A stretch of DNA of 43,080 nucleotides from Clostridia bacterium (GTDB lineage: Bacteria > Bacillota > Clostridia > Oscillospirales > CAG-272): contig JAFYTT010000374.1 of NCBI GenBank assembly GCA_017558715.1, positions 1 to 43,080 on the forward strand, given 5' to 3'. The notes under the pieces are model-generated. The model had not been told where the DNA came from. It made no database searches and saw only the letters and a list, made by a program, of their open reading frames with translations. Below are positions 18,948 through 36,159 of the stretch, one piece after another. A program made the translations under genes and the position numbers. Position 1 is the stretch's first letter. Each line of letters starts with the position of its first letter.

Positions 18948-20885
18948 TTATTCATTTCCGGTCAGAATCACGGCAGAATCCGGTTTGACGATAGCATCGC
19001 CGCGGTATTCCGTTCCTGTCAGAAGATCGGTATAGCTTCCCGCAATCCGATAGGCATTGTCCGAGCGGTTGACGCAAATACGAAGGGTGTCATCCCCGTC
19101 GCCGCGCGTAAAGTCAAACACACCGTCCCCGGCATGCAGAATCCGCGTAACACCCTCTGCAAAAACAGGATGGGTACGGCGAATGTCCGACAGTTTGCGA
19201 TAATGCGCAAGCAGCGTTTCGTCTTCCCGTCCCCACGGATACGGACGGCGGTTGAGCGGATCGCGGTATCCTTCTATCCCGATCTCATCACCGTAATAGA
19301 TACACGGGATACCGGGTAAGGTAAACTGCAGTACCGACGCAAGTCCGACAAGGACACGGCCGCGCGCTTTTTCCTCTTCTGTCATACGGATCAGCGCAAG
19401 TGCATCGTTGTCAAGATCGCCCATCGGTTTTGCTGCCAGCGCACTGATGATGCGTTCCGTATCATGCGTTCCGAGCAGATTCATTAAAAGATGCGTACAG
19501 CCGTCGGGGTAATGTCCGAGTACCATCCGTACTGCATGCTCCAGCGCTCCGACGTTCCCGTCTCGGACAAAGGACAGAATCGCATCCCGGAACGGATAGT
19601 TCATGACGGAGTCGAGCTGCCGTCCGCGGAAATAACGGCGTCTGCGGTCATACGCGATCTTGTTGGACGCATCCTCCCAAACCTCACCGTAAATCACGGC
19701 ATCGGGATTCTCTGCCTTCACGCGCGTGCGCAGATCATCAAGGAAGCGGTTATCAAGCTCATCCGCAACGTCAAGCCGCCAGCCGGATACGCCGCAGGAC
19801 ATCCACTTATGAAGAATTCCATGCTCGCCGCAGATGTAATCTCTGAAATCGGGATTGCCCGAATACAGCGCCGGCAGAACCTTCACACCCCACCAGGAGT
19901 CATAGTCATCGGGATATTCGCGGAAGCGGTACCAGTCAAAATACGGCGATTCCTTGGACTGATACGCGCCGATGGAATCGTATTTTCCGTATCGGTTGAA
20001 ATAACGGCTGTCATCGCCCGTGTGATTGAAGACACCGTCGCAGATGACGCGGATGCCGTATTTCTTTGCCTCCGACAGCAGGTTCACGAATGCCTCGTCA
20101 CCGCCAAAGGACGGATCGACCGTCTCATAATCTCCCGTATCGTATTTGTGGTTGGTATACGCGCGGAAAATCGGAGACAGATACAGAATCGTTACACCGA
20201 GCGACTGTAAATACGGCAGTTTTTCCGCCACGCCCCACAGATTGCCGCCGAAAAACTCGTTGTTCTCGACCTGACCGCCGGGGTATTTTGCATGCTGGGG
20301 AATCCCGTGATACCAGTCATCATTGTATTCGGCATCCTCGCGGCGCGGCATATCGGGATGGGCCTCACTCTTTGCAAAGCGGTCGACAAACACATGGTAC
20401 ATAATGCCGCCGTACCATGATTTCGGGGTCTCATATCCGTCCTCGGTCACCGTCCATTGAAACGCATGAACATTTTCATCCTTCCATTTATAAACCGCAC
20501 CGAAATCGTTTTCTTCCTTTGCGTAAATCAGATGCCCAAAACGGGTATCAAATTCAAAGCGGAAGTAGAACAGTCCGCTCTCCTCACCATCTGCACAGAC
20601 CTGACTGCCGCTGACCGTGACCGACCACACGCTGTCATCGCCCTCTGTCATTTCCAGCCACAGTACCGCTCCGTCATCATCACGATACAAACGCATTCTG
20701 CCGCCCAGCACTTCCCATTCACGCGGAATCGGCACAGAAAATGTCAGGGTTTCACCGAAGCGGCTGACGGTATGGGAAAGAACCGTTCCGTCTTCCCGGG
20801 TTACTGTCATCGGGTAAGGATTTGTTTTTTCGATAGGAAAAACCGGATGATATCCGGTTTCTCCTGTATGATTCATTTCATTCAT
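18948..20885 (-). CDS. GH13 neopullulanase/amylopullulanase-like alpha-glucan hydrolase
   Basis: YHVFVDRF, GGNL.G, NHKYDT, DGVFNH, GWRLDVADE, GEVW, GTHDT; catalytic triad intact. Confidence 0.9.
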   Translation of the reverse strand: MNEMNHTGETGYHPVFPIEKTNPYPMTVTREDGTVLSHTVSRFGETLTFSVPIPREWEVLGGRMRLYRDDDGAVLWLEMTEGDDSVWSVTVSGSQVCADGEESGLFYFRFEFDTRFGHLIYAKEENDFGAVYKWKDENVHAFQWTVTEDGYETPKSWYGGIMYHVFVDRFAKSEAHPDMPRREDAEYNDDWYHGIPQHAKYPGGQVENNEFFGGNLWGVAEKLPYLQSLGVTILYLSPIFRAYTNHKYDTGDYETVDPSFGGDEAFVNLLSEAKKYGIRVICDGVFNHTGDDSRYFNRYGKYDSIGAYQSKESPYFDWYRFREYPDDYDSWWGVKVLPALYSGNPDFRDYICGEHGILHKWMSCGVSGWRLDVADELDNRFLDDLRTRVKAENPDAVIYGEVWEDASNKIAYDRRRRYFRGRQLDSVMNYPFRDAILSFVRDGNVGALEHAVRMVLGHYPDGCTHLLMNLLGTHDTERIISALAAKPMGDLDNDALALIRMTEEEKARGRVLVGLASVLQFTLPGIPCIYYGDEIGIEGYRDPLNRRPYPWGREDETLLAHYRKLSDIRRTHPVFAEGVTRILHAGDGVFDFTRGDGDDTLRICVNRSDNAYRIAGSYTDLLTGTEYRGDAIVKPDSAVILTGNE

Positions 20886-20894
20886 GCCAAAGAA

Positions 20895-23354
20895 TTATTT
20901 CTTTCTGGTCTTGGTTGTCTTTGTGACGGGTGCTGTGATGGGTGTCATATGCCAGATGTTCTTTGCATATTCACTGATCGCACGGTCTGCCGCAAAGATA
21001 CCTGCGGACGCCGTGTTGACCAGCGACATCTTCGCCCACTTGTCTCGGTTGTTAAAATCAACCGTCATGCGGTCATGCGCACGGCAGTAGGACTCAAAGT
21101 CCGCCAGACACATATACGGGTCAGCGATACCGCGTCCGATGACAAGGTAATCGACGAAATCGCGGTAGGAGTTGCCGTTGAAGCCGAAGGTGAAGGAATC
21201 GACCGTTCTCTTAAGCTTGTCGTTGGCAACATAATAGGTAGCCGCGTTGTAACCGTGACGCCACAGATCCTCGACTTCCGGCGTGGTCAGACCAAACAGG
21301 TACATGTTGTCGTCCCCAACAGCCTCATGGATTTCGACATTCGCACCGTCCAGCGTACCGATGGTAACAGCACCGTTGATCATCAGCTTCATACAGCCGG
21401 TACCGGATGCTTCCTTACCTGCAAGTGAAATCTGCTCGGAAATATCTGCCGAGGGAATCAGCACTTCTGCCATGGAGACGTTGTAGTCTTCCATGAAAAC
21501 AACGCGCAGCTTTTCGCGGATACGAGGATCACGCTCGATTTCAGCCTGCAGATCGCAGATCATCTTGATGATGCGCTTTGCCATATCATAACCTGGTGCT
21601 GCCTTTGCACCGAAAATGAAGGTCTGGGGCGTGATATCGAGATTCGGATTTTCGCGCAGCTCGTTGTAAAGGCTCACAATGCGCAGGGCATTCAGCAGCT
21701 GGCGCTTGTATTCATGCAGACGCTTGACCTGCACGTCGAAAATGGAATCGGGGTTGAGCGCAATGCCGGTCTTGGATGCGACATAGTTGGAGAAGCGAAC
21801 CTTGTTCTCACGCTTGATCGCAAGGATCTGATCAAGAACCTTCTGATCGTCCTTGTATTCGAGCAGTCTCGACAGCGTTTCGGGCTGCTTTTTGTAATCG
21901 GTACCGATCAGGTTATCCAGCAGACCCGTCAGGCCGGGGTTGGAGTAGCACAGCCATCTGCGGTGTGCAATACCGTTGGTGACGTTGGTGAACTTGCCGG
22001 GCGTGTACTTGTAGTAGTCATGGAAGACGGTCTTTGTCAGAATATCGGAGTGGAGCTTCGATACACCGTTGACCGTGTGAGAACCGGCAACGCACATATT
22101 TGCCATACGTACAGAGCCGTAGCCGATGATCGCCATGCGGGAGATACGATCCCAGTCACCGGGATAGCACTTCCAGAGGTCTTCGCACAGACGGCGGTTG
22201 ATCTCACGGACGATGGTATGGATACGCGGCAGCTTGAGCGCAAACAGGTCTTCGTTCCATGTTTCAAGCGCTTCGGGCATGACGGTATGGTTGGTGTAGG
22301 AAACGGTACGGGTAACAACATCCCATGCCTGTTCCCAGTTGTAGCTATGGACATCCATCAGCTGACGCATCAGTTCCGGAATCACGAGTGCCGGGTGCGT
22401 ATCGTTAACGTGGATAGCAACCTTGTCTGCAAAATTCCACAGCGAGCCGTAACGGCGCAGATGGTCGGAAATGATCGACTGCAGAGATGCGGAAACGAGG
22501 AAATACTGCTGGGAAAGGCGGAGCAGCTTACCCTCGGTATGGTTGTCGGACGGATACAGAACCTTGGTCAGAATTTCCGCATTGGTGTTCTGCTCCATTG
22601 CCTGCAGATAAGCACCCTGCGAGAACAGGTTCATGTTGAACATCGAGGTGGTCTTTGCCTTCCACAGACGCAGAACGTTGACAGCCTCACAGTCGGCACC
22701 GGAAATCATGATATCATAAGGAACAGCCTGGATTTCTTCATAGTTGTCATGAACGATGTCACACTTGCCGTCCTTCCAGGTTTCCTTGATGTGACCGCCG
22801 AAACGGACAGTGCACGCCTTATCGGTTCTGGGAACGAGCACAACATCACCGCCGGGCAGCCAGTTGTCGGGCAGCTCAATCTGCTGACCGTCGACAAGCT
22901 TCTGCTTGAACAGACCGTATTCGTACAGCAGCGAAAAACCGGTTGCGGGATAGTTGAGCGTGGTAGCCGCGTCCATATAGCATGCGGCAAGGCGACCGAG
23001 ACCGCCGTTGCCAAGACCCGGATCGGGTTCACGTTCGTATACGGATTCGAGCGAAAAACCGAGCTCGGACAGAACATCGCGATAGATTTCTGTGAGACCA
23101 AGATTACCGAGGTTATTCTTCAGCGAACGGCCGATGAGGAATTCCATGCACATATAGTACAGGGTCTTGCCGGACTGACGCTTGACTTCTTCTTTATATT
23201 CAGAGCGCTTCTGGGACAGAATGTCCTTGACGCACATCATCACGGCGCGGTAAATCTGATCTTCATTGGCTTCTGCCATGGTAACGCCGAAATAGCGGGA
23301 AAGCTTGGTTGAAAGCGCTTCCCTAACGGATTCTTTGGTGAATTTCTGATTCAT
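20895..23354 (-). CDS. glgP: Glycogen/starch phosphorylase
   Basis: GLGNGGLGRLAAC, NDTHP, YTNHT, KRLHEYKRQ, EASGTG.MK; start at ATG 23354. Confidence 0.96.
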   Translation of the reverse strand: MNQKFTKESVREALSTKLSRYFGVTMAEANEDQIYRAVMMCVKDILSQKRSEYKEEVKRQSGKTLYYMCMEFLIGRSLKNNLGNLGLTEIYRDVLSELGFSLESVYEREPDPGLGNGGLGRLAACYMDAATTLNYPATGFSLLYEYGLFKQKLVDGQQIELPDNWLPGGDVVLVPRTDKACTVRFGGHIKETWKDGKCDIVHDNYEEIQAVPYDIMISGADCEAVNVLRLWKAKTTSMFNMNLFSQGAYLQAMEQNTNAEILTKVLYPSDNHTEGKLLRLSQQYFLVSASLQSIISDHLRRYGSLWNFADKVAIHVNDTHPALVIPELMRQLMDVHSYNWEQAWDVVTRTVSYTNHTVMPEALETWNEDLFALKLPRIHTIVREINRRLCEDLWKCYPGDWDRISRMAIIGYGSVRMANMCVAGSHTVNGVSKLHSDILTKTVFHDYYKYTPGKFTNVTNGIAHRRWLCYSNPGLTGLLDNLIGTDYKKQPETLSRLLEYKDDQKVLDQILAIKRENKVRFSNYVASKTGIALNPDSIFDVQVKRLHEYKRQLLNALRIVSLYNELRENPNLDITPQTFIFGAKAAPGYDMAKRIIKMICDLQAEIERDPRIREKLRVVFMEDYNVSMAEVLIPSADISEQISLAGKEASGTGCMKLMINGAVTIGTLDGANVEIHEAVGDDNMYLFGLTTPEVEDLWRHGYNAATYYVANDKLKRTVDSFTFGFNGNSYRDFVDYLVIGRGIADPYMCLADFESYCRAHDRMTVDFNNRDKWAKMSLVNTASAGIFAADRAISEYAKNIWHMTPITAPVTKTTKTRKK

Positions 23355-23393
23355 GGATTCTCTTCCTTTTATCTGGTAATTTCGTACCCTAAT

Positions 23394-23422
23394 ATTATAC
23401 CACAAATTCACGGTACGGTCAA
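23394..23422 (-). promoter_or_regulatory. sigmaA promoter of glgP-GH13
   Basis: TTGACC-17 bp-TATAAT with TG. Confidence 0.75.
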
Positions 23423-23531
23423 GATGGTAATCGCCCATTTTTACATGTAATTTTGGGGATTTTTGCTATTTGGAAGAACTGGGAGTTGTTTTATCTCACA
23501 AAAATAGATAGGATTTGGTGAATGACACAAG

Positions 23532-23587: not shown

Positions 23588-25018
23588 TTACAGTGCATCG
23601 TACATATCAAGATACTTCTTTGCGGATACCGACCAGGAGAAGTCGACCTTCATCGCGTTTGCACGCAGGGTTTCCCACTGCTTTGCATCCCCGTACAGAT
23701 CAACCGCGCGAATGATCGCATCCAGCATATCGAGCGCATCATAGTTGCAGAATGTGATACCGTTGCCCTCGCCTGTGGTCTGGTCGTAGGGATGAATGGT
23801 ATCGTAAAGACCGCCGACTTCACGGACAATCGGCACCGTGCCGTAACGGGAAGCGATCATCTGTGCAAGACCGCACGGCTCGCTCTTGGACGGCATTAAG
23901 AAGATATCCGCACCGGCATAAATCTGCTTGGAAACGTCCTTGTTGTACGCCAGCAGAATCGAAACCTTTTCGGGATAACGCTTCTGCAGACCCTCAAAGA
24001 AGTTTTCCAGATCCGCCTCACCCGTACCAAGCAGAACAAACTGCACATCACGGACAAGCAGACGCTCAATGGCATACTTGACCAGATCAAAGCCCTTGTG
24101 AGAAGCCAGACGGGAAACCATCGCAATGACCGGCGTGGACGGGGATTCGGGAAGACCGAAGACCTTCTGCAGCTCTGCCTTGTTTGCAGCCTTGCCTTCC
24201 TCCACGGTATCAACCGTGAAGTTCTGCTTGATGACAGGATCGGTTTCGGCGTTGTAATAATCAACGTCAATACCGTTGACGATACCCATGACCTTGCCCG
24301 AGTACATACGCAGAATGTGCTGCAGACCCGATGCAAAATAATCCATCTGGATTTCCTCGGCATAACGGGAAGAAACAGTAGACAGTCTGTCACAGCAGAC
24401 GATCGCGCCCTTGGTGAGATTGATCATGCCGTTGTATTCAACGATGGAATGTTCGTAATCGGAAAGTCCGAAGACATCACCGAGAATGGACATATCGTAA
24501 ATGCCCTGATAGTCGATGTTGTGGATGGTATAAACGGTCTTGATGCCGCGGTATTCCTGCATCCAGTTGTACTTGGTGCGCAGATAGATGATGGACAGCG
24601 CACTCTGCCAGTCGTGGGCATGGAGGACATCCGGGAAGAAACCGATCTTCGGCATCATTTCCATGACTGCCATGCAGAAGAATGCAAAGCGTTCGCCGTC
24701 ATCGAAGTTGCCGTACAGATTGCCGCGGGAGAAGTAATACTGGTTGTCAATGAAGTAATACGTAACATCATTCAGCTCATAGCTGTACAGACCGCAGTAC
24801 TGATTTCTCCAGGACAGCTGGACGTAGTATTCGGTGACCTTTTCCATCTTGTCGCGGTATTTTTCGGAAATGGACTGGTACAGAGGGAGCACGACACGGA
24901 TATCGAGGTCATCACCCTGATCGCGCTTGAGCGCTGCGGGCAGAGAACCGAGAACGTCCGCAAGACCGCCTGTGGATGCAAACGGCAGTGCTTCCGCACC
25001 GACAAATAATAATTTCAT
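23588..25018 (-). CDS. glgA: Glycogen synthase (GT5)
   Basis: TGGLADV, HAHDWQ, TIHN, GIVNGID, SRL..HKG, EPCGL. Confidence 0.95.
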   Translation of the reverse strand: MKLLFVGAEALPFASTGGLADVLGSLPAALKRDQGDDLDIRVVLPLYQSISEKYRDKMEKVTEYYVQLSWRNQYCGLYSYELNDVTYYFIDNQYYFSRGNLYGNFDDGERFAFFCMAVMEMMPKIGFFPDVLHAHDWQSALSIIYLRTKYNWMQEYRGIKTVYTIHNIDYQGIYDMSILGDVFGLSDYEHSIVEYNGMINLTKGAIVCCDRLSTVSSRYAEEIQMDYFASGLQHILRMYSGKVMGIVNGIDVDYYNAETDPVIKQNFTVDTVEEGKAANKAELQKVFGLPESPSTPVIAMVSRLASHKGFDLVKYAIERLLVRDVQFVLLGTGEADLENFFEGLQKRYPEKVSILLAYNKDVSKQIYAGADIFLMPSKSEPCGLAQMIASRYGTVPIVREVGGLYDTIHPYDQTTGEGNGITFCNYDALDMLDAIIRAVDLYGDAKQWETLRANAMKVDFSWSVSAKKYLDMYDAL

Positions 25019-25056: not shown

Positions 25057-26187
25057 TTACAGCATCTGGTTCTTACCGATGAAATACGGCTTGGACGGAT
25101 GACCGGACAGGACATTGCCGTCGCGGATGACGGTATTCTTATCGGAAATGACACAGTTCATAAAGACATTTTCGCCGACAACGGTATCCTGATACAGAAT
25201 ACAGTTCTTGACAACAGCACCGCGTCCGATCTTGACACCGCGGAACAGGATGCAGTTTTCAACGGTACCGTCGATGGTACAGCCGTCTGCAATCAGAGAG
25301 TTCTTGACGACAGAGGAATCGGTATAACGGGTGGGCGCAGAGTTGCGGACCTTGGTCAGAACAGGACGTCTGTCGATACCGAACAGTGCGGAGCGGAATG
25401 CGGTATTGGTAATCAGCTCCATGCTGGTTGCAAAGTAGTCTTCCAGCGAGGAAATGGTCGCAAATGCACCGTCGTAACGGTAAACGCGGTAAACACGCTC
25501 ATCCTTGTTGCGCATCATGATATCGCGGGTCAGGCTGGTAAAGCCGTGTGCGATGGATTCCTGAACAAAGCTCTGCAGATACTTGGTGTTGACAACGATG
25601 ATGTTCAGCGCAACATCGTGTTCACCTTCCGCATACTTGGGGTTCATCGCCATATCGACAATACGACCGTTCTCGTCTGCGTCAATGATGGTTGCGGTTT
25701 CGCTGATGGCACCGTTCAGTGTCATGCGCTTGGTCATCATCGTGATGTCGGCATTGTTTGCAATGTGATCACGGAGCAGGTCTTCGAGATCGATGTTGCA
25801 GATGCCGTCACAGTCTGCCATAATGACATAATCTTCCTTGATGTGGTTCAGGCTTGCCGCGATGCCCATCAGGGATTCCAGACGGGAGTGACCGCCGACC
25901 TGATAGTTCTGGCTTGCACGCATATTGGGCGGGAGGATCTTGATACCGCCGGAGCGTCTTGCCAGATCCCAGTCCTTACCGGAACCGATGTGATCCATCA
26001 GAGACTGGTAGTTGTACTGCGTGACAACGCGGATATCGGTGATACCGGAGTTGACCATATTGGACAGCGTAAAGTCGATCAGGCGGTATCTGCATCCGAA
26101 CGGAACAGAGCCGACGGTACGGCTGCGGGTCAGTTCGGGAATGTTTCTTTCATGGAGATTGGCAAAGATAATACCGATTGCGTTCAT
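25057..26187 (-). CDS. glgD: Glucose-1-phosphate adenylyltransferase, GlgD subunit
   Basis: [41 protein letters not shown]; overlaps the glgC stop. Confidence 0.93.
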
Positions 26188-27401
26188 GCGATATTACCTC
26201 CTTCCTTGAGTTGGGAAAGTTTGGCTTCGTTGACCATGTCTCCGGCAGCAATTGTCATGCCTGCGGGAACTGTCAGCTTGGTACCGATGACGCAGATCTT
26301 TTCTTCGTCATTCTTGGCACCGACGACCGCACCAGCGCTGATGACGGTATCCGCGTCAACGATGGAATATTCGACTCTGGCACCGGCTTCGATTCTGGTA
26401 CCGCTCATAATGACGGAATCACGGACAACCGCACCGGGAGCGACATAAACGCCGTCAAAAAGCACAGAGTTTTCAACACAGCCGTAAATTTCGCAGCCTT
26501 CGCTCATCATCGAGCCGTGAATCTTGGCATCCTCACCGATAAACTGCGGCGGGCGTGCGGAGGTACGGGAGAAGATTCTCCAGTTCTTGTCGTAAAGATC
26601 GAATTCGGGCTTTTCGCCGAGCAGATCCATATTAGCTTCCCACAGAGATGCAATCGTTCCGACGTCCTTCCAATAACCGGAGAAGGGATATGCATACATG
26701 GACTTGCCGTCACCCAGCATCTTCGGGATGATATTCTTACCGAAGTCCTTGGAGGAATTCGGGTCGTTTTCGTCGGCAATCAGATATTCTCGGAGCAGTT
26801 TTGCATTGAAGATGTAAATACCCATCGATGCCTTGGTGGACTTGGGCTGCTTGGGCTTTTCTTCAAACTCGAAGATCTTGCCGTTTTCGTCCGCATTCAT
26901 AATACCGAAACGGGAAGCCTCGGACAGCGGAACCTCCAGAACAGAAATCGTACAGTCGGCGTTCATCTTCTTATGATAATCGAGCATTGCCGCATAGTCC
27001 ATCTTATAGATGTGGTCACCGGAGAGGATGAGCACATAGTCGGGATCATAGCGGTCGATGAAGTTGAGGTTCTGGTAAATGGCGTTTGCCGTGCCGGAAT
27101 ACCAGTCAGCGCCGTTCTTGCCCTGGTACGGCGGAAGCACCATAACACCGCCGCGGCTGCGGTCAAGGTCCCACGGCTGACCGTTGCCGATGTACTCGTT
27201 GAGTACAAGCGGCTGATACTGCGTCAGAACACCAACGGTGTCGAGACCGGAATTGATGCAGTTGGAGAGCGGGAAGTCGATGATACGGTATTTACCGCCG
27301 AACTGGACAGCGGGTTTTGCCGTCGATTCTGTCAGTGTGTACAGTCTGCTGCCCTGTCCTCCCGCAAGCAGCATCACGACACATTCTTTCTTTTGGAACA
27401 T
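26184..27401 (-). CDS. glgC: Glucose-1-phosphate adenylyltransferase
   Basis: [54 protein letters not shown]; AAGGAGG RBS. Confidence 0.96.
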
Positions 27402-27488
27402 GATTACAATATTCCTCCTTCTATTTTTGTGTTCTGCCATGGGCACCATACACCAAAGCAAAACATACGGTACAATAATAATGTGGGA

Positions 27489-29552
27489 TCATGATTTGCG
27501 CTGGCGTTTGACCGGCGCAAAGATCACAGCAGACATTGCCGGCAGCGTCACACACAGACAGCGGTGCGTTTCGCTGTTGTCGGGTGCCATCACGGGTTCT
27601 GCGGTCAGTCTGCCTTCATTATGACAGTCCGAGCCGCCCCACGCCGCATCATCGGTTGTGAACAATTCCTCATAAACCGCAGGCGCATCCGCAGGCAGTC
27701 TCATGGTATATCCGTTCAGCGGACGTGCGGAAAAGTTGACCGCAATCAGAAGCGGCATTCCGGCTCTGTCATATCGGACATATGAAATCGTATTGGTATC
27801 GCGCTCCTCCGTACCCATCCAGCGGTAACCTGCCCAGGAGAAATCGTCCTCCCACAGCTCCCGCCGCTCCAGATACAGATGATTGAGCGCACGGGTAAAG
27901 CTCTGCATCTTTCTGTGTGCGTCATAATCGAGCATGAACCATTCCAGCTGATTTTCCCAATCCCATTCACGGAACGGTGCATATTCACAGCCCATAAAGG
28001 TCATCTTTTTGCCCGGCTGTGTGATCATATAAGCAAGGAACGCACGCATACAGGCGAATTTTTCCTCATATACGCCGAACATCTTGTCCAAGAGGGATTT
28101 TCTGCCGTGAACGACCGCATCGTGCGGAATCGGCAGAATATGGTTTTCGGAAAATGCATCCATCAAAGGATCGGTCAGACAGGCGTGTTTGTCTCCACGG
28201 CGGAGCGGATCGGTGCCGACATAATCGAGCATACCGTCCATCCATGCGGTATTCCATTTGAAATTGAAGCCGAGTGCGCCGATATCCACAGGTCCCGTCA
28301 CATGCTGCTGACCGGTCGATTCGCCGGCAATCATGAGTGCATCGGGAAATTCGGAAAAGAGCTTGGTATTCAGCTTACGGAAAAACGCCATTGCCGCCGC
28401 ATTGTATTCCGTACCCTCGCCGTTGTCAAAATACAGCATATCGGTGACATCACAGCAGCGCAGACCGTCGATATGATATTCCCGCAGCCAGAACATGGCA
28501 CCCGAGACAAGGAACGACTGTACCTCGGGACGTCCGACATCGAAACGGTCGGTACCGCCCATGTCATCCTCATCCCAGTTCTGATATTCATAGCAGAAGC
28601 TGCCGTCAAACCGATACAGACCGTGCTCGTCCCGAGGGAAGCGGGCAGGTACCCAGTCCAGAATCACACCGATTCCGGCAGTATGGCAGGCATCCACGAA
28701 ATATTTGAAATCCTCAGGTGTTCCGAAGCGGGATGTCGGTGCATAATAAGAACAGACACGGTAACCCCAGGAACGGTCATCGGGATGCTCGGTCACAGGA
28801 AGCAGTTCCACATGGGTATATCCCATTTCCTTTACATACGGAACGAGTACCTCCGCAATTTCTCTGTAATTGAGATATGCCGCAGGATTTTTGCGTGTGG
28901 TCATACCCTCGCGCGTACGGAATGAGCCGAGATGCACCTCGTAAATATTCATCGGCGCCGGGTAGAATGCGCGCATCGCTTTGGATGCTTTTTTCTTCTG
29001 CTCGGTCAGAAGGATGCTCCCTGCATTTTCGGAAGCTTCTTCCGCCGCTCTGCTTTTTGCCTGCGGGGAGGAAAAGATTCTGCGTCTGTGCGTACGCCAT
29101 CCTCTGTCATGCCATTCAAACTTCGGCGGGATATACAGAATGGACGCGGTATTGTGCAGACATTCCGAAAAGACACCGTACGGATCTGCTTTCAGATGGA
29201 CACCGTTGTCTCCTGTAATCCGATATTTATACCGCTGACCGACACGGATGATATCCTCTTCTTTTTTGCCTTTTTCAGGCAGCGGAACGATACATTCCCA
29301 GACACCGGCCTCCGTCACACGCGTCATCGGATATCCGTCGCCCCAGTCGTTAAAATCCCCAACCACTTCGATTTTCTGTGCGCGCGGTGCCCAGACGCGG
29401 AAGATCCAGCATCTGCCGGTCTTTCCGTCGGAATAATGCGCGCCGAGATAATCGTATGCATACGTCGTGGTTCCCTGATGGAAATAGTATGCGGCAAGAT
29501 CATCGGGGGTACTTGCGCGGGATGCGGGTGTTTGCGGTTTGCCTTGTGCCAT
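27489..29552 (-). CDS. glgB: 1,4-alpha-glucan branching enzyme homolog (catalytic residues substituted)
   Basis: FRVWAP, KADPY, NIYEVHLGS, MGYTHVELLP, SWGY, GIGVILDWVP, VVHG.KSL, PGKK..FMG; active-site motifs deviate (see findings). Confidence 0.85.
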   Translation of the reverse strand: MAQGKPQTPASRASTPDDLAAYYFHQGTTTYAYDYLGAHYSDGKTGRCWIFRVWAPRAQKIEVVGDFNDWGDGYPMTRVTEAGVWECIVPLPEKGKKEEDIIRVGQRYKYRITGDNGVHLKADPYGVFSECLHNTASILYIPPKFEWHDRGWRTHRRRIFSSPQAKSRAAEEASENAGSILLTEQKKKASKAMRAFYPAPMNIYEVHLGSFRTREGMTTRKNPAAYLNYREIAEVLVPYVKEMGYTHVELLPVTEHPDDRSWGYRVCSYYAPTSRFGTPEDFKYFVDACHTAGIGVILDWVPARFPRDEHGLYRFDGSFCYEYQNWDEDDMGGTDRFDVGRPEVQSFLVSGAMFWLREYHIDGLRCCDVTDMLYFDNGEGTEYNAAAMAFFRKLNTKLFSEFPDALMIAGESTGQQHVTGPVDIGALGFNFKWNTAWMDGMLDYVGTDPLRRGDKHACLTDPLMDAFSENHILPIPHDAVVHGRKSLLDKMFGVYEEKFACMRAFLAYMITQPGKKMTFMGCEYAPFREWDWENQLEWFMLDYDAHRKMQSFTRALNHLYLERRELWEDDFSWAGYRWMGTEERDTNTISYVRYDRAGMPLLIAVNFSARPLNGYTMRLPADAPAVYEELFTTDDAAWGGSDCHNEGRLTAEPVMAPDNSETHRCLCVTLPAMSAVIFAPVKRQRKS

Positions 29553-29626
29553 ATTGTATTACTCCTGTGTTTTTCGCATAACGGAACCTCCCGCACTCCA
29601 TGCAGAGTCGAGAGTTCGCTGTTTAT

Positions 29627-29655
29627 ATTATATCTCATTCCTCTGCATTTTGCAA
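29627..29655 (-). promoter_or_regulatory. sigmaA promoter of glgB-C-D-A
   Basis: TTGCAA-17 bp-TATAAT. Confidence 0.65.
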
Positions 29656-29775
29656 GAGGGTTTTCACACTTCCGTGCACTTTTTTTCATAAAGTTCGGCT
29701 ATTTCTGTCAAATATCGCCATCCTTATTTGTATATGTTGCTGTACCCCATTTTTTCAACAGAAAGACAGACCACG

Positions 29776-29849: not shown

Positions 29850-32471
29850 TCAGCGGATGCCCGAAACCACAGGACAAAGTGTCCCGCCGGATAAAAGTCC
29901 GCCGATCTCGGCATAACCCTCAAGCAGATTGGCATACGAATTGTAAACGGTAATATCCAGACAATGCATACCGGCACACAGCTCCAGCACAAAATCATAC
30001 GGCTGTCGAATGCATTTTCCAACCTCGGTACCGTCAACAGCTGCCGTAACGGTATCACGAACCTCACCCAGCGACAGCAGATATCTGCCGTCCTGCGGAA
30101 TCGCAACCGTCATGTGATAGGTCACGCCGCCGGAATAGAACGGCTGACCTTGTTCGGACCATGATTCATCGGTTTTCAGCGCGGTATGACGTGCAGAAAG
30201 TGTAACCTCGGCACGGTCGGGAATCCACATACACAGATTATAGGTATGGCGTGCTGTCTTATGGAGAACATGTTCACCTGCCACAGAAACATCAAATTCA
30301 CCTGACAGGAACAAAAGACTGTCGGCGGTCAGCGGTGCTGTTTTCTCAATCATCAGAGTATACTTCCCCGGCTGCAGCACGGGCAGTGCAAACGCGCTGT
30401 ACGCATCGTCAAAAATCTGTACCGACTGTGCGGACAGTCTGATACCGTCCAGCGTCACCGCCGTAATTGTTTCAAGACAGAACGTCGGAATCATCACAGA
30501 AACGTCAGCCATCGCATCTGTTACAGTAAACGGAAATTCCAGCGACGGAACATCCTCATCCTTGGTCACAGCCGTACCATCGCAGACAAAATATTCCAGC
30601 GACACAGCATTCGGCGCATGGAAGGTAACGGGACATGTTTGCGGCAAAGATGCCACAGCATCGCCGAGGACAAAACGCGCAGGGATGTTGTCATAATGCG
30701 CCGATACATAACGGATGTCACCGGGATACAGCAGCAGAGATTCTTTTCGTCCGTACGCATACAGGGTGCCGCGAATCGGTTCGTTTTGTTCGATGTTGGC
30801 AATAAAAACAAATTCTTCGCCGTCGATGATGCGGCGCGCAAAATGCGGTGTTCCCTCACCGTCCCAGCGTACCGTACAGTCGGACAGCAAGTCGGGAATA
30901 CGGTCAAGCGCATCCGCACCGATGACCGTGATGCCGTTTGCCTCGATTGCGGCGCGTTCTTCCTCGGACAGTACGATTCCGGCTTCAATGGCAATGCGGA
31001 ATCCCAAATCTTCGTTTGCAAGGCGAACACGGTCACAGACGGTAAAGCCCCAGACCTCGCGGTTGAGTCGGTTAAATACATCAAAATACGGCGCGCCGTC
31101 AAAACGGTTCCGCCAGAGATCCTCGGTCGGATCGATCAGTGCAATGGGATACAAGGGCTTGCCCGATGCCATCATCGCACTCATTTCCGCCAGATGGTCG
31201 TTGAGTTCTCTCACTGCATGGGAAAGCATGGATTTCGGGGAGAAATCCGGCGGTGCAAAATACTTTGCTTCTCCAAAGAAACGGTGATGGTAGGCATGCG
31301 TCACAAGGAACGTAATGCCCTGCATGATCTGAAATGCGGCAATCCGTGCAAGCGTTCCAGGCTCAACCCCGAAGTTGGTTGCGGCAAACATTTCGCACAT
31401 CGTTTCCCGTTTGCCAAGCATAAATGCCGTCGCCGCCGCCTGCTTTGCGCGCATATCATGCGATACATCGGTGAAGTCCGTCATTTTCAGCGTCGTCTGC
31501 GGCAATCCCCAAACGACATTGGGAAGATAAAAACATTCCCCGCGCATATGCTTTCCGCCGTCCAGCGCATACAGCTCCTGGTCGGTTCCCGGATAATCAA
31601 AGTGCGAACCGACATCGGAAAAACGTCCTTCCGTAAATGCGGAACTGCGCGGCGCATCGTTATGAAGAAACGGTGAAGTATCTCCGGCATGACCGGTGAT
31701 CAGAAGACCGTGTTCATGTGCCCAGCGTTCCCCTGTTTCAAACCAACTCTGATAAAGATGACCCGCATGCTCCCAATAATCCTGTGCCTGCGGCAGATCC
31801 GGATATTGCAGAAGGTCCTTCAGATACGGTGTGATATCATAGCCGTATTTCTTTTCAAAGGAATTTGCAAAGTCATCCGACCATGGGAAATAATTGCGTT
31901 TGTAGTTTTCAAAGCCGTACATCGCGCCGGCATCGACACGGCGGTTGTCGGTATCGGAGAAAAAGCCGACGATCGGATCACCGAAATAGTCCCCGACCTC
32001 GCGCAGATACGCCTCATAGACCAGCTCACGGAACAGTTCGGCAGAACGCGGATGCTCAAACGCAGGGAATCCCCATTCCACCTTTTCCGCGATAACCTGT
32101 CCGTCCTTGAGGATCAGATGCTGTCCGTACAGCGTGGGATCAATTGCACGAACCTTTCCCGCAACACTTCCGGGCGGGAAATCAAAGCCGTTGTTGATCC
32201 ACATTTCAAGAGACAAATCCCGGCAAGCCTTTGCCGCAGCACGCACCATGTCAAACCACGCATCCGTCAGATAGTTCTCCGACGTAAATCCGCGCGGCGG
32301 CTTGTTGAACAGAACAATCCCGCCAAAGCCTTCTTCCTTCAAAGCCGACAGAGCTTCATGCATCGCCGCCTCCGACAGTGCCTCGGGATCGGTTGTTGTA
32401 ATGAAATAAAACGGTTTTGGCCGATGTGCGAACACATCAGCCTCACCGATCGGATATCGATTCATACGCAT
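29850..32471 (-). CDS. GH106/alpha-L-rhamnosidase-like large glycosidase homolog
   Basis: PKPFYF, GFGG, YL...WF, YEAY, DYPG.D, CEMF, C-terminal SWSEQGQPFYSG...LDITVYN beta-sandwich; no signal peptide; start 32471 or 32465. Confidence 0.6.
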   Translation of the reverse strand: MRMNRYPIGEADVFAHRPKPFYFITTTDPEALSEAAMHEALSALKEEGFGGIVLFNKPPRGFTSENYLTDAWFDMVRAAAKACRDLSLEMWINNGFDFPPGSVAGKVRAIDPTLYGQHLILKDGQVIAEKVEWGFPAFEHPRSAELFRELVYEAYLREVGDYFGDPIVGFFSDTDNRRVDAGAMYGFENYKRNYFPWSDDFANSFEKKYGYDITPYLKDLLQYPDLPQAQDYWEHAGHLYQSWFETGERWAHEHGLLITGHAGDTSPFLHNDAPRSSAFTEGRFSDVGSHFDYPGTDQELYALDGGKHMRGECFYLPNVVWGLPQTTLKMTDFTDVSHDMRAKQAAATAFMLGKRETMCEMFAATNFGVEPGTLARIAAFQIMQGITFLVTHAYHHRFFGEAKYFAPPDFSPKSMLSHAVRELNDHLAEMSAMMASGKPLYPIALIDPTEDLWRNRFDGAPYFDVFNRLNREVWGFTVCDRVRLANEDLGFRIAIEAGIVLSEEERAAIEANGITVIGADALDRIPDLLSDCTVRWDGEGTPHFARRIIDGEEFVFIANIEQNEPIRGTLYAYGRKESLLLYPGDIRYVSAHYDNIPARFVLGDAVASLPQTCPVTFHAPNAVSLEYFVCDGTAVTKDEDVPSLEFPFTVTDAMADVSVMIPTFCLETITAVTLDGIRLSAQSVQIFDDAYSAFALPVLQPGKYTLMIEKTAPLTADSLLFLSGEFDVSVAGEHVLHKTARHTYNLCMWIPDRAEVTLSARHTALKTDESWSEQGQPFYSGGVTYHMTVAIPQDGRYLLSLGEVRDTVTAAVDGTEVGKCIRQPYDFVLELCAGMHCLDITVYNSYANLLEGYAEIGGLLSGGTLCPVVSGIR

Positions 32472-32481
32472 CAAACCTGCA

Positions 32482-33969
32482 TCAATAGTCGCTCGACATA
32501 TAGAAGTCCAGCGTTTCCTGCATTGCCTTCTCACAAGATTTTTTCTTAGAATCCCAGACCGTCGAGAAAGACTTACCGCTGGTTGCCATAACATCCAGCT
32601 GCGACTTGATGGAACCCCAGTTGAAGACGAAGCCAAGGTCATAACGCTTGGTGGAGAAGATGATATCGAGCATATCGCCGGATTCGTTGTCACGCGCCAT
32701 CTTGGTGTAGAGGTTGAGGTCGTAATACGCCTTTGTGACGGTATCGCGGGATTCGTATGCCAGAGCTTCGAGCAGATGGCAGGTCATATCAAGCTTCGCA
32801 ACATTGGTCGTCGGGACGCAGATACCGGGAGCCACGTGCGTTGCAATCAGATGGTAGTAGTCCTCCTGGTTTTCGTCATACAGCGGATACGGCAGGATAC
32901 CGAAGTCGTGCTCCATGTTGCGGTAATAAACGATATCGTAAATGGAACCGGGACGGAACAGATTGCGGTTTTCCATGAAGACCTTGTCAAGCGTCGTCCA
33001 GGTTTCGGAGCACTTGGATGCCCACAGCATATTATCGGTATCGTTGAAGTATTCAACCAGATACTCGCAAACATCAAAGGTACGCTGAGATTCCACGGAG
33101 AAGTACGGAACGCCTTCATCATCCAGCGTAACGAGGTTGTTGCCGCAGGTGAAGTAAAACAGGAATGCCATACCGCCGTCGGAGAGGATGCCGAACTGGT
33201 CGTTCTCGTCGCGGACACCGTCACCGTTGAGGTCACGCGCGACCTGCTTGCCGAGGGCCTGCATCTGATCCATCGTCCACTTCTTATCGCGTGCCATCTG
33301 GTATACGTCCGGAACATCAAAGTCGTTTGCAACCTTCTTGTTGAAATAGACGCAGTAGTTCAGTTCTTCGTCGTACACAGAGATGTCACCGGTCATGACA
33401 TAGATCTTATTGAACATTGCAAGGTCACGCTGGATCGCCTGATCCCACCACGGTGCATCCATCTTGATGGACGGCAGGTCATACCAGTTCATGAACATGC
33501 CTTCCATTGCCATGGACATGGCATTGTTGATGTACAGCTCCATGACATCAAAGTCGTCGGAGCCTGTGGTAATCGAGTTGCGGGCAGTCGTCGCAGGAGC
33601 CTTGTCGTTGGTGACTTCAATGGTACAGTTATAGCGTTCTTCAATGAGCATATTGCGCGCATGAATCGCATCCGCGATCAGATCACCCGCAGATGCTTCG
33701 TCATAGTAGAAGTCATACTGATGGATACAGTCAACGCCGAGCTCATAGCCGAGGATGCGCAGCTTCTCACCGCCGAAATCTGCCTCGGGCAGATCGAGTG
33801 CGGGACGGTCATCGGTTACGGCTTCTGTGACAATCGCGGCAGTGTCCTCACCGCCGACAGCTGCGGTGGTTTCAGCAGGCTGTGTACCGCCGTCGCCGCC
33901 GCAGGATGCAGCAGTCCCCATGACGGTGCAGAGCAGTAAAAATGCGGGAAGTAATCTCTTGATAGTCAT
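32482..33969 (-). CDS. Extracellular solute-binding lipoprotein (ABC family 1, sugar-type)
   Basis: Lipobox AAS-C, T/A-rich linker, PWWD, YFNK, WTMD, DLNGDG, FGILPYP, LEALA; GGAGG RBS. Confidence 0.85.
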   Translation of the reverse strand: MTIKRLLPAFLLLCTVMGTAASCGGDGGTQPAETTAAVGGEDTAAIVTEAVTDDRPALDLPEADFGGEKLRILGYELGVDCIHQYDFYYDEASAGDLIADAIHARNMLIEERYNCTIEVTNDKAPATTARNSITTGSDDFDVMELYINNAMSMAMEGMFMNWYDLPSIKMDAPWWDQAIQRDLAMFNKIYVMTGDISVYDEELNYCVYFNKKVANDFDVPDVYQMARDKKWTMDQMQALGKQVARDLNGDGVRDENDQFGILSDGGMAFLFYFTCGNNLVTLDDEGVPYFSVESQRTFDVCEYLVEYFNDTDNMLWASKCSETWTTLDKVFMENRNLFRPGSIYDIVYYRNMEHDFGILPYPLYDENQEDYYHLIATHVAPGICVPTTNVAKLDMTCHLLEALAYESRDTVTKAYYDLNLYTKMARDNESGDMLDIIFSTKRYDLGFVFNWGSIKSQLDVMATSGKSFSTVWDSKKKSCEKAMQETLDFYMSSDY

Positions 33970-34008: not shown

Positions 34009-36159
34009 TCAGTAATGCTCGGTACGCGCAAGAATGTCATCCTGCACAGAACGGTCGAGCTTGGTATAGTACGCCGAGAAGCCGGAAACGCGGACAACCA
34101 GAGATTCGTAATCCCCTGGATGCGCCTGTGCATCACGCAGCATATCCTTGGAAACGCAGTTGATCTGCAGCTCCTGTCCGCCCATCAAGAAATACGAGCG
34201 GATGACGGCACCGAGCTTGGCACGCTTTTCGGCATTGGCGAACATATCGGGCGTGTACTTCTGGTTGACAACGGTACCGCAGGCAACGCGGGTGTAGTCA
34301 GGCTTGCACAGCGACAGTGCCGATGCCGTGGGACCGGAGCGATCCATGCCGCGCATCGGGGATGCCGCATCAGAGACCGGCATACCGGCACCGCGTCCGT
34401 CGGGTGTTGCACCGACCTCGCGCCCTGCACCGATGTTCTGCGTGTTGGAAGCAATCGCAATATAATATCTGCCGCCGTCGGGTGTTCTGTAGGAGTCGAA
34501 CAGGTCTGCCTGCGCCTCGACAAACCAAATGGCGTACTTGTCGGCAATGTCGTCGTTGTTGCCGTACTTGGGTGCGGCAATCATCTGCTTCTGCAGTTCC
34601 TCATATCCTGCAAAATTCGCCGCAAGTGCATCACGCAGTTCACCGAGTGTGAGCACCTTGTCGCGGTAGACCAGCGTTTCGATCGCCGCAAGGGAATCCG
34701 CGACCGTGGCAATGCCCATACCGCAGGCACCGTGTGCCGTCGGATACTTTGCGCCGCCGCGGTTGATATCCTTACCGTTTGCAATACAGTCATCGCAGAA
34801 GCAGGATAAGAACGGCGACTGATGGTTGATCGTATCCGCAACCGTATTGGCGCGGTTAAACCAGTCCACATAATTTTTTGCACCCACACGCAGCTGCTCC
34901 ATGAACGCATCCATAAAGTCATCCATCGTCGCAAACGAATCGGGTTCTCCCGTTTCGATGCCGCGCTTCACACCGTCCAGCAGAGAACAGCCGTTGTTGA
35001 GCGCGTATTCCAGATACACAGGCGTGTTGAAGCGACCGTCAGACCACGGCGGCTGTTTGCCCTGGATAAAGTTCTCGATACAGCCGACCATACAGTAGTC
35101 GCGGCAGTCCTCAAGAGAATATCCCATTCGCTGCAGTGCCGGAATGTTGACGTCGTCATTCATCAGTGCAGGATATCCAAGACCCGTACCGATGACCTCA
35201 AGACAGGCATCGAGAAACTCCTTCGGCGTATCCTTGTGAATTCTTGCGGACAGATTCGGACCGGGAATAAAGCAGGCACGAACTGCGCGGAGAATACAGT
35301 AGGACAGCGCATTGGTCGCGTCGGTTCCGTCCTCGGGTTTGACACCGCCGATGGCAATGTTGGAGACATCATCACCGCCGCCAAGCGTTCTGCGTTCGCC
35401 GATCTTGATGAAAATGGATGCAAAATCGTCCGTAACCGATTCCTCGGTGACAATGCCGGAGGCAAGATCACGTTCATAAAACGGATAGAGGTACTGATCG
35501 AGCCGTCCGAACGCCATGGCATATCTGCCCTCATAGGCAAATGCGATATAGGTAAACCAGACAAGCTGCAGCGCATCGGCAAACGACTGCGGTGCCTCTG
35601 TTGTGATGCGACGGCATCTTGCCGCAATTTCCGCAAAACGAAGCTTGTCATCGCCCTCCGCTGCATCTGCCATGCGATCCGCCTCGTCTGCATAACCGAG
35701 AATCATCCCGGCAAACCCTTCCATGGCAATTTTTGTACTGCGCAGAAATGCGGTCTTCTCCGCATCGTCGGCATAACGGATAAGGGATGCGTCGATGTCT
35801 TCCAGCGTTCCGGGAATACCGCGATTCAGAAAATGTGAATAATTTGCCGCATAATGGTCAGAATTGGTATGGAAGCCGCGTTCCGGATACTGTGCACAGA
35901 TCTGTCCTGCCGCGGATGCCGCTTCCTCGGAAACATCTGCAAGCATACCGCGCAGAGAACCCGCGAAGCGATCGTTCTGATACAATACCTTTCTATGGGA
36001 AGTAAACAGCGAATGAATGGCATACGCACGGGCGATGACGTTTTCCTCGTCGGCATGCTGTGCATACCCCTGCGCCCGATACACAGCGGCGGCATACCGT
36101 CCCGATACCGGCATTTGTACTTCTGCCTTCAGTGCTGTAAGATCAAACTGCATTTGCAT
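34009..36159 (-). CDS. Glycyl radical enzyme (PFL2/PflD-like superfamily), substrate unknown
   Basis: FGRLDQYL, single-Cys loop MVGCIE, APKYGN, ATPDGR, C-terminal LVVRVSGFSAY glycyl motif. Confidence 0.9.
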   Translation of the reverse strand: MQMQFDLTALKAEVQMPVSGRYAAAVYRAQGYAQHADEENVIARAYAIHSLFTSHRKVLYQNDRFAGSLRGMLADVSEEAASAAGQICAQYPERGFHTNSDHYAANYSHFLNRGIPGTLEDIDASLIRYADDAEKTAFLRSTKIAMEGFAGMILGYADEADRMADAAEGDDKLRFAEIAARCRRITTEAPQSFADALQLVWFTYIAFAYEGRYAMAFGRLDQYLYPFYERDLASGIVTEESVTDDFASIFIKIGERRTLGGGDDVSNIAIGGVKPEDGTDATNALSYCILRAVRACFIPGPNLSARIHKDTPKEFLDACLEVIGTGLGYPALMNDDVNIPALQRMGYSLEDCRDYCMVGCIENFIQGKQPPWSDGRFNTPVYLEYALNNGCSLLDGVKRGIETGEPDSFATMDDFMDAFMEQLRVGAKNYVDWFNRANTVADTINHQSPFLSCFCDDCIANGKDINRGGAKYPTAHGACGMGIATVADSLAAIETLVYRDKVLTLGELRDALAANFAGYEELQKQMIAAPKYGNNDDIADKYAIWFVEAQADLFDSYRTPDGGRYYIAIASNTQNIGAGREVGATPDGRGAGMPVSDAASPMRGMDRSGPTASALSLCKPDYTRVACGTVVNQKYTPDMFANAEKRAKLGAVIRSYFLMGGQELQINCVSKDMLRDAQAHPGDYESLVVRVSGFSAYYTKLDRSVQDDILARTEHY

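Follow-up and report, generated by a model that had tools for sequence, protein, structure and literature searches.

Canonical glycogen branching enzymes of subfamily GH13_9 (GlgB) are built from a CBM48 domain, a (beta/alpha)8 barrel and a C-terminal beta-sandwich, and branching enzymes act by a retaining double-displacement mechanism (PMC13515694). In Firmicutes, glgB stands first in an operon of the glgBCDAP type, whose GlgD is a dead paralogue serving glycogen synthesis (PMC10395257), and Type 2 glycogen branching enzymes carry N2/CBM48 as their sole N-terminal domain (PMC6339891). A conserved GH13 protein of alpha-glucan metabolism that has lost catalysis beside an active relative is described in plants as ISA2 (GH13_11; PMC12510319, PMC3958451). 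Here we describe a glgB-like gene in a stretch of 43,080 nucleotides from a Clostridia bacterium of the rumen (GenBank contig JAFYTT010000374.1; the whole stretch is called the window below), which is contig C368 of the metagenome-assembled genome (MAG) G000, 83% complete and in 428 contigs.

The gene, whose product is designated P0001, is the first of a minus-strand glycogen operon and is followed in order by glgC, glgD, glgA, glgP and a neopullulanase-like GH13 gene (Table 1). That it heads the operon had been stated in a first-pass annotation made from the sequence alone, and the gene row agrees with the Firmicutes arrangement. P0001 also has the domain order of canonical GH13_9 GlgB, with CBM48 as its only N-terminal domain as in Type 2 enzymes. 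Unlike canonical GlgB, however, it lacks the nucleophile Asp, the acid/base Glu, the region-I His, the Gln of the GYQ motif and the Glu of the HDE motif, and its beta4 loop is shorter. We consider it likely that P0001 is a non-catalytic GlgB retained by selection. By analogy, plant ISA2 would be its closest resemblance and GlgD, encoded two genes downstream, a second one. Both likenesses have limits. ISA2, unlike P0001, is homologous to debranching enzymes and has been demonstrated to form a complex with ISA1, and the active counterpart of P0001 comes from another subfamily (GH13_8), not from a close paralogue as in ISA1/ISA2. GlgD has an unrelated fold and is ancient and widespread, whereas the dead GlgB is recent within one genus, and repeated elsewhere. 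Full-text literature searches, with supplementary files outside their scope, returned no description of a catalytically dead bacterial GlgB. Two points characterize the present case: the gene that died is the glgB of the operon itself, and its loss of catalysis is linked to GH13_8, a link that recurs in other lineages.

Architecture and catalytic residues of the glgB product

Pfam matches to PF02922, PF00128, PF02806 and PF22019 correspond to CBM48, the alpha-amylase barrel and the C-domain of P0001, which passes the NCBIfam GlgB equivalog model NF008967 (672.8 bits, cut-off 577) and has the Cyanothece branching enzyme as its best match in PDB (5gr1, E = 8.6e-136). An AlphaFold2 (AF2) model was obtained with a predicted local distance difference test score (pLDDT) of 86.4 and a predicted template-modelling score (pTM) of 0.89, and Foldseek placed it at a template-modelling score (TM) of 0.84 to the Cyanothece enzyme (5gr5 and 6klf). 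Translation of 27489-29552 on the minus strand gave an open frame of 687 aa, in keeping with the annotation's statement that there is no frameshift or stop, and its remark that scaffold motifs are well kept was borne out by intact signature residues in CBM48 and the barrel core. Between CBM48 and the barrel lies a charged, predicted-disordered insert, with pLDDT below 50 at residues 165-170 and 176-191 of the AF2 model. This insertion, also noticed earlier, is real and genus-wide. Since it is present in L011-L013, which keep all catalytic residues, it is older than the catalytic loss and no part of it. A further structure, deposited as Faecalibacterium duncaniae branching enzyme FdBE2 (PDB 21jh / 21kg, released 2025-12-31), has a TM of 0.83 to the P0001 model; its name implies more than one branching enzyme in that species, and no mention of FdBE2 (PDB 21jh) was found in the literature searched.

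Catalytic positions were mapped by aligning P0001 with E. coli K-12 GlgB (L076), and 86 canonical rows were compared. In the E. coli enzyme, D405, E458 and D526 are residues which we take, from the literature on structure 1M7X, to be the catalytic triad. Two of these are replaced in P0001 (D405 by C367 and E458 by G410), together with H340 by R304, Q301 by R265 and E527 by A479. Kept are, in E. coli numbering, Y300, D335, R403, H525 and D526, among them the region-II Arg (R365 of P0001) and the region-IV His-Asp pair (H477 and D478). The position of E458 is Glu in all 86 canonical rows, and that of H340 is His in 99% of them. In an ungapped HMMER alignment with the Cyanothece enzyme, C367 sits under the residue mutated in PDB 6klf ('D434A mutant'). 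Compared with canonical relatives, the codon changes GAT to TGT and GAG to GGC take two base changes each. The loop after MLY (beta4) is about 10 residues shorter than in the Cyanothece enzyme, and three near-invariant canonical columns in it (G, W and P) are gaps in the Cys-bearing clade described below. Charged residues new to P0001 are, in its own numbering, R260, R265, R304, R307, D335 and D368.

The first-pass annotation had listed the replacements DWVPARF, DGLRCCDV, IAGES, PHDAV and GYR, and all of them are in the translated frame. Its assignment of the losses to D405, E458 and H340 of E. coli GlgB is confirmed by the alignment, as are the lost acid/base Glu, with the Gly of IAGES at 28325-28323 (Gly410), and the shortened loop after MLY. 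For DGLRCCDV the motif is right and the coordinates need correction, in that 28460-28446 spans only RCCDV and the whole motif occupies 28469-28446. With its nucleophile Asp, acid/base Glu and region-I His all replaced, P0001 should be unable to work by the retaining double-displacement mechanism of branching enzymes. Judged by its sequence, it fails three defining catalytic features and would therefore not be classed as a branching enzyme, despite its GH13_9 sequence and fold.

The source is a fragmented MAG of several hundred contigs, which could favor the explanation that the substitutions are assembly or sequencing artefacts. However, a DNA contig of 16.6 kb from another study (run X6) spans 27300-29700 with 37 substitutions and 0 indels, and two shorter contigs cover parts of this region, one of DNA from another study (X4; 1,422 nt, 28279-29700) and one from an RNA library (X15; 703 nt, 27792-28494). 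Among the rows listed in this comparison there were no differences at the three key codons. Runs from nine studies contain the stretch, most of them metagenomes of the bovine gut. In the protein databases, P0006, which is 99% identical to P0001 and represents a cluster of 75 member sequences, has the same Cys, and so do eight further distinct proteins at 80-87% identity; P0007-P0013, with Cys at the nucleophile position, come from four different sources. Each key change also needs two base substitutions. Assembly error, raised in the annotation as something to check, is thus excluded by independent DNA contigs and by database proteins with the same Cys, and we give the artefact explanation a negligible chance.

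Relaxed clade and selection after the catalytic loss

The 36 closest distinct proteins were inspected at five motifs. Fifteen of them (P0001 and P0006-P0019), which are at least 73% identical, form a relaxed group, while the next-nearest 21 (P0020-P0040) are canonical at all five motifs. Within the relaxed group the nucleophile position holds Cys in 9 proteins, Glu in 2 and Asp in 4, so that the nucleophile Asp is absent from 11 of the 15. The acid/base position holds Gly in 8, Asp in 2 and Glu in 5; the region-I His is replaced by R, Q, W, Y or C in 11, and both the GYQ Gln and the HDE Glu are gone from all 15. In the tree this relaxed clade is monophyletic (19 rows including genome loci, with a support of 100 in the Shimodaira-Hasegawa-like approximate likelihood ratio test, SH-aLRT) and nested among canonical sequences of the genus, and the Cys-bearing proteins form a subclade in it (11 rows, SH-aLRT 99). 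The frame was open in every clade member examined, and all 15 distinct proteins are full length. That sister lineages have replaced the same positions by different residues indicates released constraint, since a new active site would show fixed replacements.

Because G000 and its relative G009 have the same dead motifs, the differences between their GlgB copies (95% identical) postdate the loss. Between them we obtained 0.022 non-synonymous (dN) and 0.233 synonymous (dS) substitutions per site, giving a dN/dS ratio (omega) of 0.093. Of 126 differences, 92 were synonymous and 34 non-synonymous, whereas neutrality expects 77.9% to be non-synonymous (binomial p = 8e-34). Omega was 0.068 in both CBM48 and the barrel and 0.049 in the C-domain, and the only parts that looked nearly free were the insert (0.52) and the N-tail (0.62). 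Against G007, G008 and G002 the omega of glgB was 0.12-0.14, at dS values near saturation. The comparison of dN/dS across orthologs that the annotation had proposed thus shows a ratio of 0.093 after the loss, and no simple decay. As a separate observation, the dS of glgB between G000 and G007, G008 or G002 (1.1-1.3) was 2-4 times that of glgC, glgD and glgA (0.28-0.62), which could be due to codon bias in highly conserved genes, saturation or recombination.

The protein evolves faster than its operon neighbors. Between G000 and G007, dN was 0.137 for glgB, compared with 0.005 for glgC, 0.006 for glgD, 0.012 for glgA and 0.026 for glgP, and the Tajima test counted 85 unique changes versus 44 in the canonical sister lineage (p = 3e-4), which is about twice the rate. 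This release is confined in space. In the 86 canonical GlgBs, 205 columns show a conservation of at least 97%. The relaxed clade has released 30 of these columns, and all 30 lie within residues 260-484, the active-site half of the barrel, where they comprise GYQ, region I, the beta3 loop, region II and its loop, region III, region IV and positions between them. In CBM48 of P0001, by comparison, all 21 canonical signature columns scored (residues 20-150) were retained (1.00). Pairwise rates gave the same picture. In canonical pairs of the genus the active-site stretch was the slowest part (dN 0.05 vs 0.20 for CBM48 and 0.26-0.30 for the C-domain), and in relaxed pairs it evolved equally fast or faster (0.13-0.21 vs 0.11-0.19 for CBM48 and 0.10-0.155 for the C-domain). 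The main inference of the annotation, a catalytically dead GlgB kept by selection, is in this way supported by the omega of the closest pair, the open frames and release only around the active site.

GH13_8 branching enzymes and the state of GlgB across genomes

Searching G000 with P0001 gave one other match, a GH13_8 (eukaryote-type) branching enzyme on contig C127. Its best PDB match is human GBE1 (4bzy, E = 6.8e-145), and all four of its motifs (DVVHSH, GFRFDG, IAED and AESHD) are intact; the orthologue in G009 lies in a full-length open frame of 713 codons. The gene is unlinked to the glg operon, and its neighbors in relatives are unrelated to glycogen (a polysaccharide biosynthesis protein and an FAD oxidoreductase). 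With P0001 as query, no second GH13_9 copy and no GlgB fusion was found in G000. Matches to PF03065, considered as possible GH57 branching enzymes in G000, G007, G009, G002 and G008, were rejected as short cross-matches, and those in G000 fall in polysaccharide deacetylases and a GH38 mannosidase. The search for a second glgB or a GH57 enzyme that the annotation had suggested therefore returned neither of them, and brought up the intact GH13_8 gene. The annotation had also offered an organism making poorly branched glucan as an explanation, a reading that loses its basis with an intact GH13_8 in the same genome. GH13_8 probably does the branching in G000.

We then compared the occurrence of GH13_8 with the state of GlgB in other genomes. 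In the genus, GH13_8 orthologues were identified in G000, G009 and G002, all with dead GlgB, and in G008, whose GlgB keeps the triad and is relaxed at other motifs; in G006 (58% complete) GH13_8 was present and GlgB was not found. GH13_8 was not found in G001, G004, G005 and G010, all of which have canonical GlgB. A GlgB match in GH13_8-positive genomes was counted at E <= 1e-60. In a sample of 120 other genomes of the family, 17 had GH13_8, and GlgB was absent in 10 of these and present in 7, where it was canonical in 2, mildly changed in 1 and dead in 4 (L072 in G046, L073 in G074, L034 in G018 and L074 in G129); three of these four dead copies directly adjoin glgC. The sample of the order consisted of 300 other genomes, and all but two of these (298) had a completeness of 90% or more and a contamination of 5% or less. 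GH13_8 was identified in 40, of which 38 were new, 25 without and 13 with GlgB. In 5 of the 13 GlgB was canonical, in 5 it kept the triad with GYE and/or HDD or HDV, and in 3, from other families, a triad residue was lost (L081 in G364, L087 in G384 and L088 in G212).

Taking the family and order samples together, GlgB was not matched in 35 of 55 GH13_8-positive genomes. The 24 GH13_8-positive genomes with GlgB, 4 of them from the genus, split into 10 dead, 7 relaxed and 7 canonical, in comparison with 14 canonical and 1 dead (G007) among 15 family and genus genomes that had GlgB and no GH13_8 found; the genomes counted include kin that share states, so the numbers are not independent. By parsimony on the tree, the dead state requires 3 changes, and well-supported branches make at least 2 of them unavoidable. 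The older dead lineages are full length and lie on branches of 1.3-1.6 changes per site. L072, L073, L034 and L074 retain 86-100% of the CBM48 signature columns and 90-100% of those of the barrel core, but 44-58% of the active-site columns, of which canonical sequences keep 92-100%.

Two further observations were made in these samples. In genus g159 (family f5), L083, L084, L086 and L089 have GYE with HDD or HDV and keep the triad, and in L088 of the same genus the nucleophile, the acid/base residue and the transition-state Asp are missing as well, so that g159 is a second genus with apparently the same path as the source genus. In-frame TAA codons occur in two GH13_8 genes (one in G122:C10:60049-61536 and two in G147:C18:320469-321950) and in one GlgB gene (one in G034:C16:18034-19491); these genes are possible pseudogenes, or the codons may be sequencing errors.

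Explanations for the retained GlgB and features of the locus

Taken together, these data could be explained if GH13_8 took over branching and freed the operon-encoded GlgB from catalytic constraint. After such a takeover GlgB would have been deleted in most lineages, and kept in some because the protein body still contributes. The most likely role of the dead GlgB would be binding of alpha-glucan or the glycogen particle through CBM48 and the remaining surface, and it may act as an accessory or regulatory protein expressed along with GlgC, GlgD, GlgA and GlgP. It is probably a glucan-binding accessory protein. The annotation had proposed a selected glucan-binding scaffold or regulatory subunit; selection is supported, retention of CBM48 and of the fold is shown, and the role itself is putative. 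A broader generalization, that where GH13_8 is present Oscillospirales-like gut and rumen Clostridia repeatedly convert the operon GlgB to a non-catalytic, CBM48-bearing, glycogen-binding subunit, with the GYQ Gln and HDE Glu going first and then the triad, is put forward only tentatively.

Several points weigh against a selected non-catalytic GlgB whose branching role passed to GH13_8. The trees are quick IQ-TREE searches with SH-aLRT support only, and dS is saturated for most pairs except G000-G009. The omega of glgB (0.09-0.14) is not above that of the intact neighboring GH13 gene (0.075-0.135), so the signal shows constraint and not its purpose. G007 has a dead GlgB, and neither GH13_8, even at E <= 1e-5, nor a GH57 branching enzyme was found in it, although at 89% completeness this genome shows neither presence nor absence of GH13_8. 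The GH13_8 gene of G000 is cut by a contig end, with 510 aa seen, in a genome that is itself an 83%-complete MAG. R365, D299, Y264, H477 and D478 remain in P0001, which could allow some sugar binding at the -1 subsite or odd residual chemistry. Contigs of the RNA library X15 cover 29 of 30 bins of the glgB-like gene, but this is no proof of transcription as DNA carry-over is possible.

Those retained residues, and Cys367, which is kept in all 11 rows of its subclade, are what speaks for P0001 being still catalytic, either as a weak or altered transglycosylase with Cys367 as nucleophile or with D368 and E411 taking over. Cysteine nucleophiles do occur in other glycosidase families (GH127). The rescue by acids one residue downstream, which the annotation had considered, does not hold up well: the alignment is gapless at both motifs, D368 is variable (Gly in clade members P0011 and P0013/L008), and E411 is the equivalent of E. 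coli E459, a position with Glu throughout the 86 canonical rows. E411 is thus an ancestral residue, no new compensating acid, and is shared with enzymes that still need E458. Rescue through D368 and E411 is therefore unlikely on the alignment. For a Cys-dependent enzyme, the Glu at the nucleophile position and the Gly or Asp at the acid/base position of sister lineages would be unexpected, and so would the varying region-I His (R, Q, W, Y or C), the drift of 30 near-invariant active-site columns and the shortened beta4 loop. We regard residual catalysis as improbable. A functionless relic on its way to loss, its frame open by chance or for operon expression only, would fit with the outright loss of GlgB in most GH13_8-positive genomes (35/55) and with a glgB dN that is 5-27 times that of glgC, glgD, glgA and glgP between G000 and G007. 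It is, however, difficult to reconcile with an omega of 0.093 after the loss and p = 8e-34 against neutrality, with full-length open frames in all 15 clade proteins down to 73% identity and in the older dead lineages, and with the 86-100% retention of CBM48 and core signature residues in old dead lineages. If glgC starts at the ATG at 27401, as inferred, about 87 nt lie between it and the glgB stop, a distance that speaks against coupled translation; coupling would in any event put no constraint on the amino acids. This explanation is very improbable.

A more specific version of the pseudoenzyme explanation would make the dead GlgB a non-catalytic heteromer partner of GH13_8, as in ISA1/ISA2. 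Of 5 genus genomes, 4 do combine dead or relaxed GlgB with GH13_8, several other lineages show this combination too, and ISA2 is a documented non-catalytic GH13 subunit (PMC12510319, PMC3958451). On the other hand, 35 of 55 GH13_8-positive genomes lack GlgB, which means that GH13_8 has no need of it; canonical GlgB is kept beside GH13_8 in 7 of 24 genomes, the two genes are unlinked with GH13_8 neighbors unrelated to glycogen, and G007 has a dead GlgB with no GH13_8 found. We consider such a partnership unlikely, and prefer a selected, non-catalytic GlgB with a glucan-binding accessory role.

The pattern amounts to a natural experiment in which an enzyme turns into a pseudoenzyme after functional replacement: where GlgB is kept beside GH13_8, a dead, conserved copy is as common as a canonical one, and the dead copies come from several separate lineages. 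Should the dead GlgB bind glycogen or a partner enzyme, a new non-catalytic protein would have to be added to those that shape bacterial glycogen. If the repeated conversion is true, dead GlgB would be an accessory factor that recurs on bacterial glycogen particles and is so far undescribed; as a bacterial equivalent of plant ISA2 and the BAM-like pseudoenzymes, it might adjust branch spacing or bring in GlgA and GlgP. There is also a practical consequence, because P0001 passes the equivalog cut-off and its database relatives are named '1,4-alpha-glucan branching protein GlgB', so that branching would be attributed to the wrong gene whenever the metabolism of rumen and gut Clostridia is reconstructed.

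Table 1. Features of the glycogen operon and of the glgB-like gene in the window, with the GH13_8 gene from elsewhere in the genome.
Feature	Position	Strand	Remarks
glgB-like gene (P0001, 687 aa)	27489..29552	-	GH13_9 architecture; nucleophile, acid/base and region-I His replaced
CBM48 domain, residues 36-126	29175..29447	-	PF02922, 71.3 bits
Charged predicted-disordered insert, about residues 159-199	28956..29078	-	between CBM48 and barrel
Arg304, codon CGC	28641..28643	-	region-I His position (E. coli H340)
Cys367, codon TGT	28452..28454	-	catalytic nucleophile position (E. coli D405)
Gly410, codon GGC	28323..28325	-	acid/base Glu position (E. coli E458)
H477-D478-A479	28116..28124	-	His and transition-state Asp kept (E. 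coli H525, D526); Ala for E527
Promoter-like TTGCAA-17-TATAAT upstream of glgB	29627..29655	-	consensus match only
AGGAG, 9 nt before glgB ATG	29566-29562		consensus match only
glgC (ADP-glucose pyrophosphorylase)	26184..27461	-	NF003670, 608 bits; ATG at 27401 is the likely start
glgD (non-catalytic GlgC-like subunit)	25057..26187	-	TIGR02092, 339.8 bits
glgA (glycogen synthase)	23588..25018	-	follows glgD
glgP (glycogen phosphorylase)	20895..23438	-	PF00343, 992.8 bits
Neopullulanase / maltogenic-amylase-like GH13	18948..20885	-	catalytic motifs intact
GH13_8 branching enzyme (L036; L003 1282-2811)	G000:C127:4785-6314		cut at contig end, 510 aa

The annotation had called the promoter and ribosome-binding site of glgB intact; both consensus matches were found again, and they are known as matches only. 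It had also stated that the neighboring GH13 keeps its triad, and the Asp, Glu and His-Asp motifs are indeed present in the open reading frame (ORF) at 18948-20885.

Upstream of the operon lies a 947-aa ORF (29850-32693, minus strand) with weak GH106 (rhamnosidase-like) and jelly-roll matches only, the initial 80 or so codons of which look non-coding. It adjoins a 495-aa ORF without a Pfam family (32482-33969, minus strand), which is followed by a PFL-like glycyl-radical enzyme at 34009-36159. On the plus strand, an 837-aa ORF (36347-38860) has Pfam matches only in its first 333 residues or so (NTP_transferase and a left-handed beta-helix), leaving about 500 C-terminal residues with no Pfam match at E <= 0.001.

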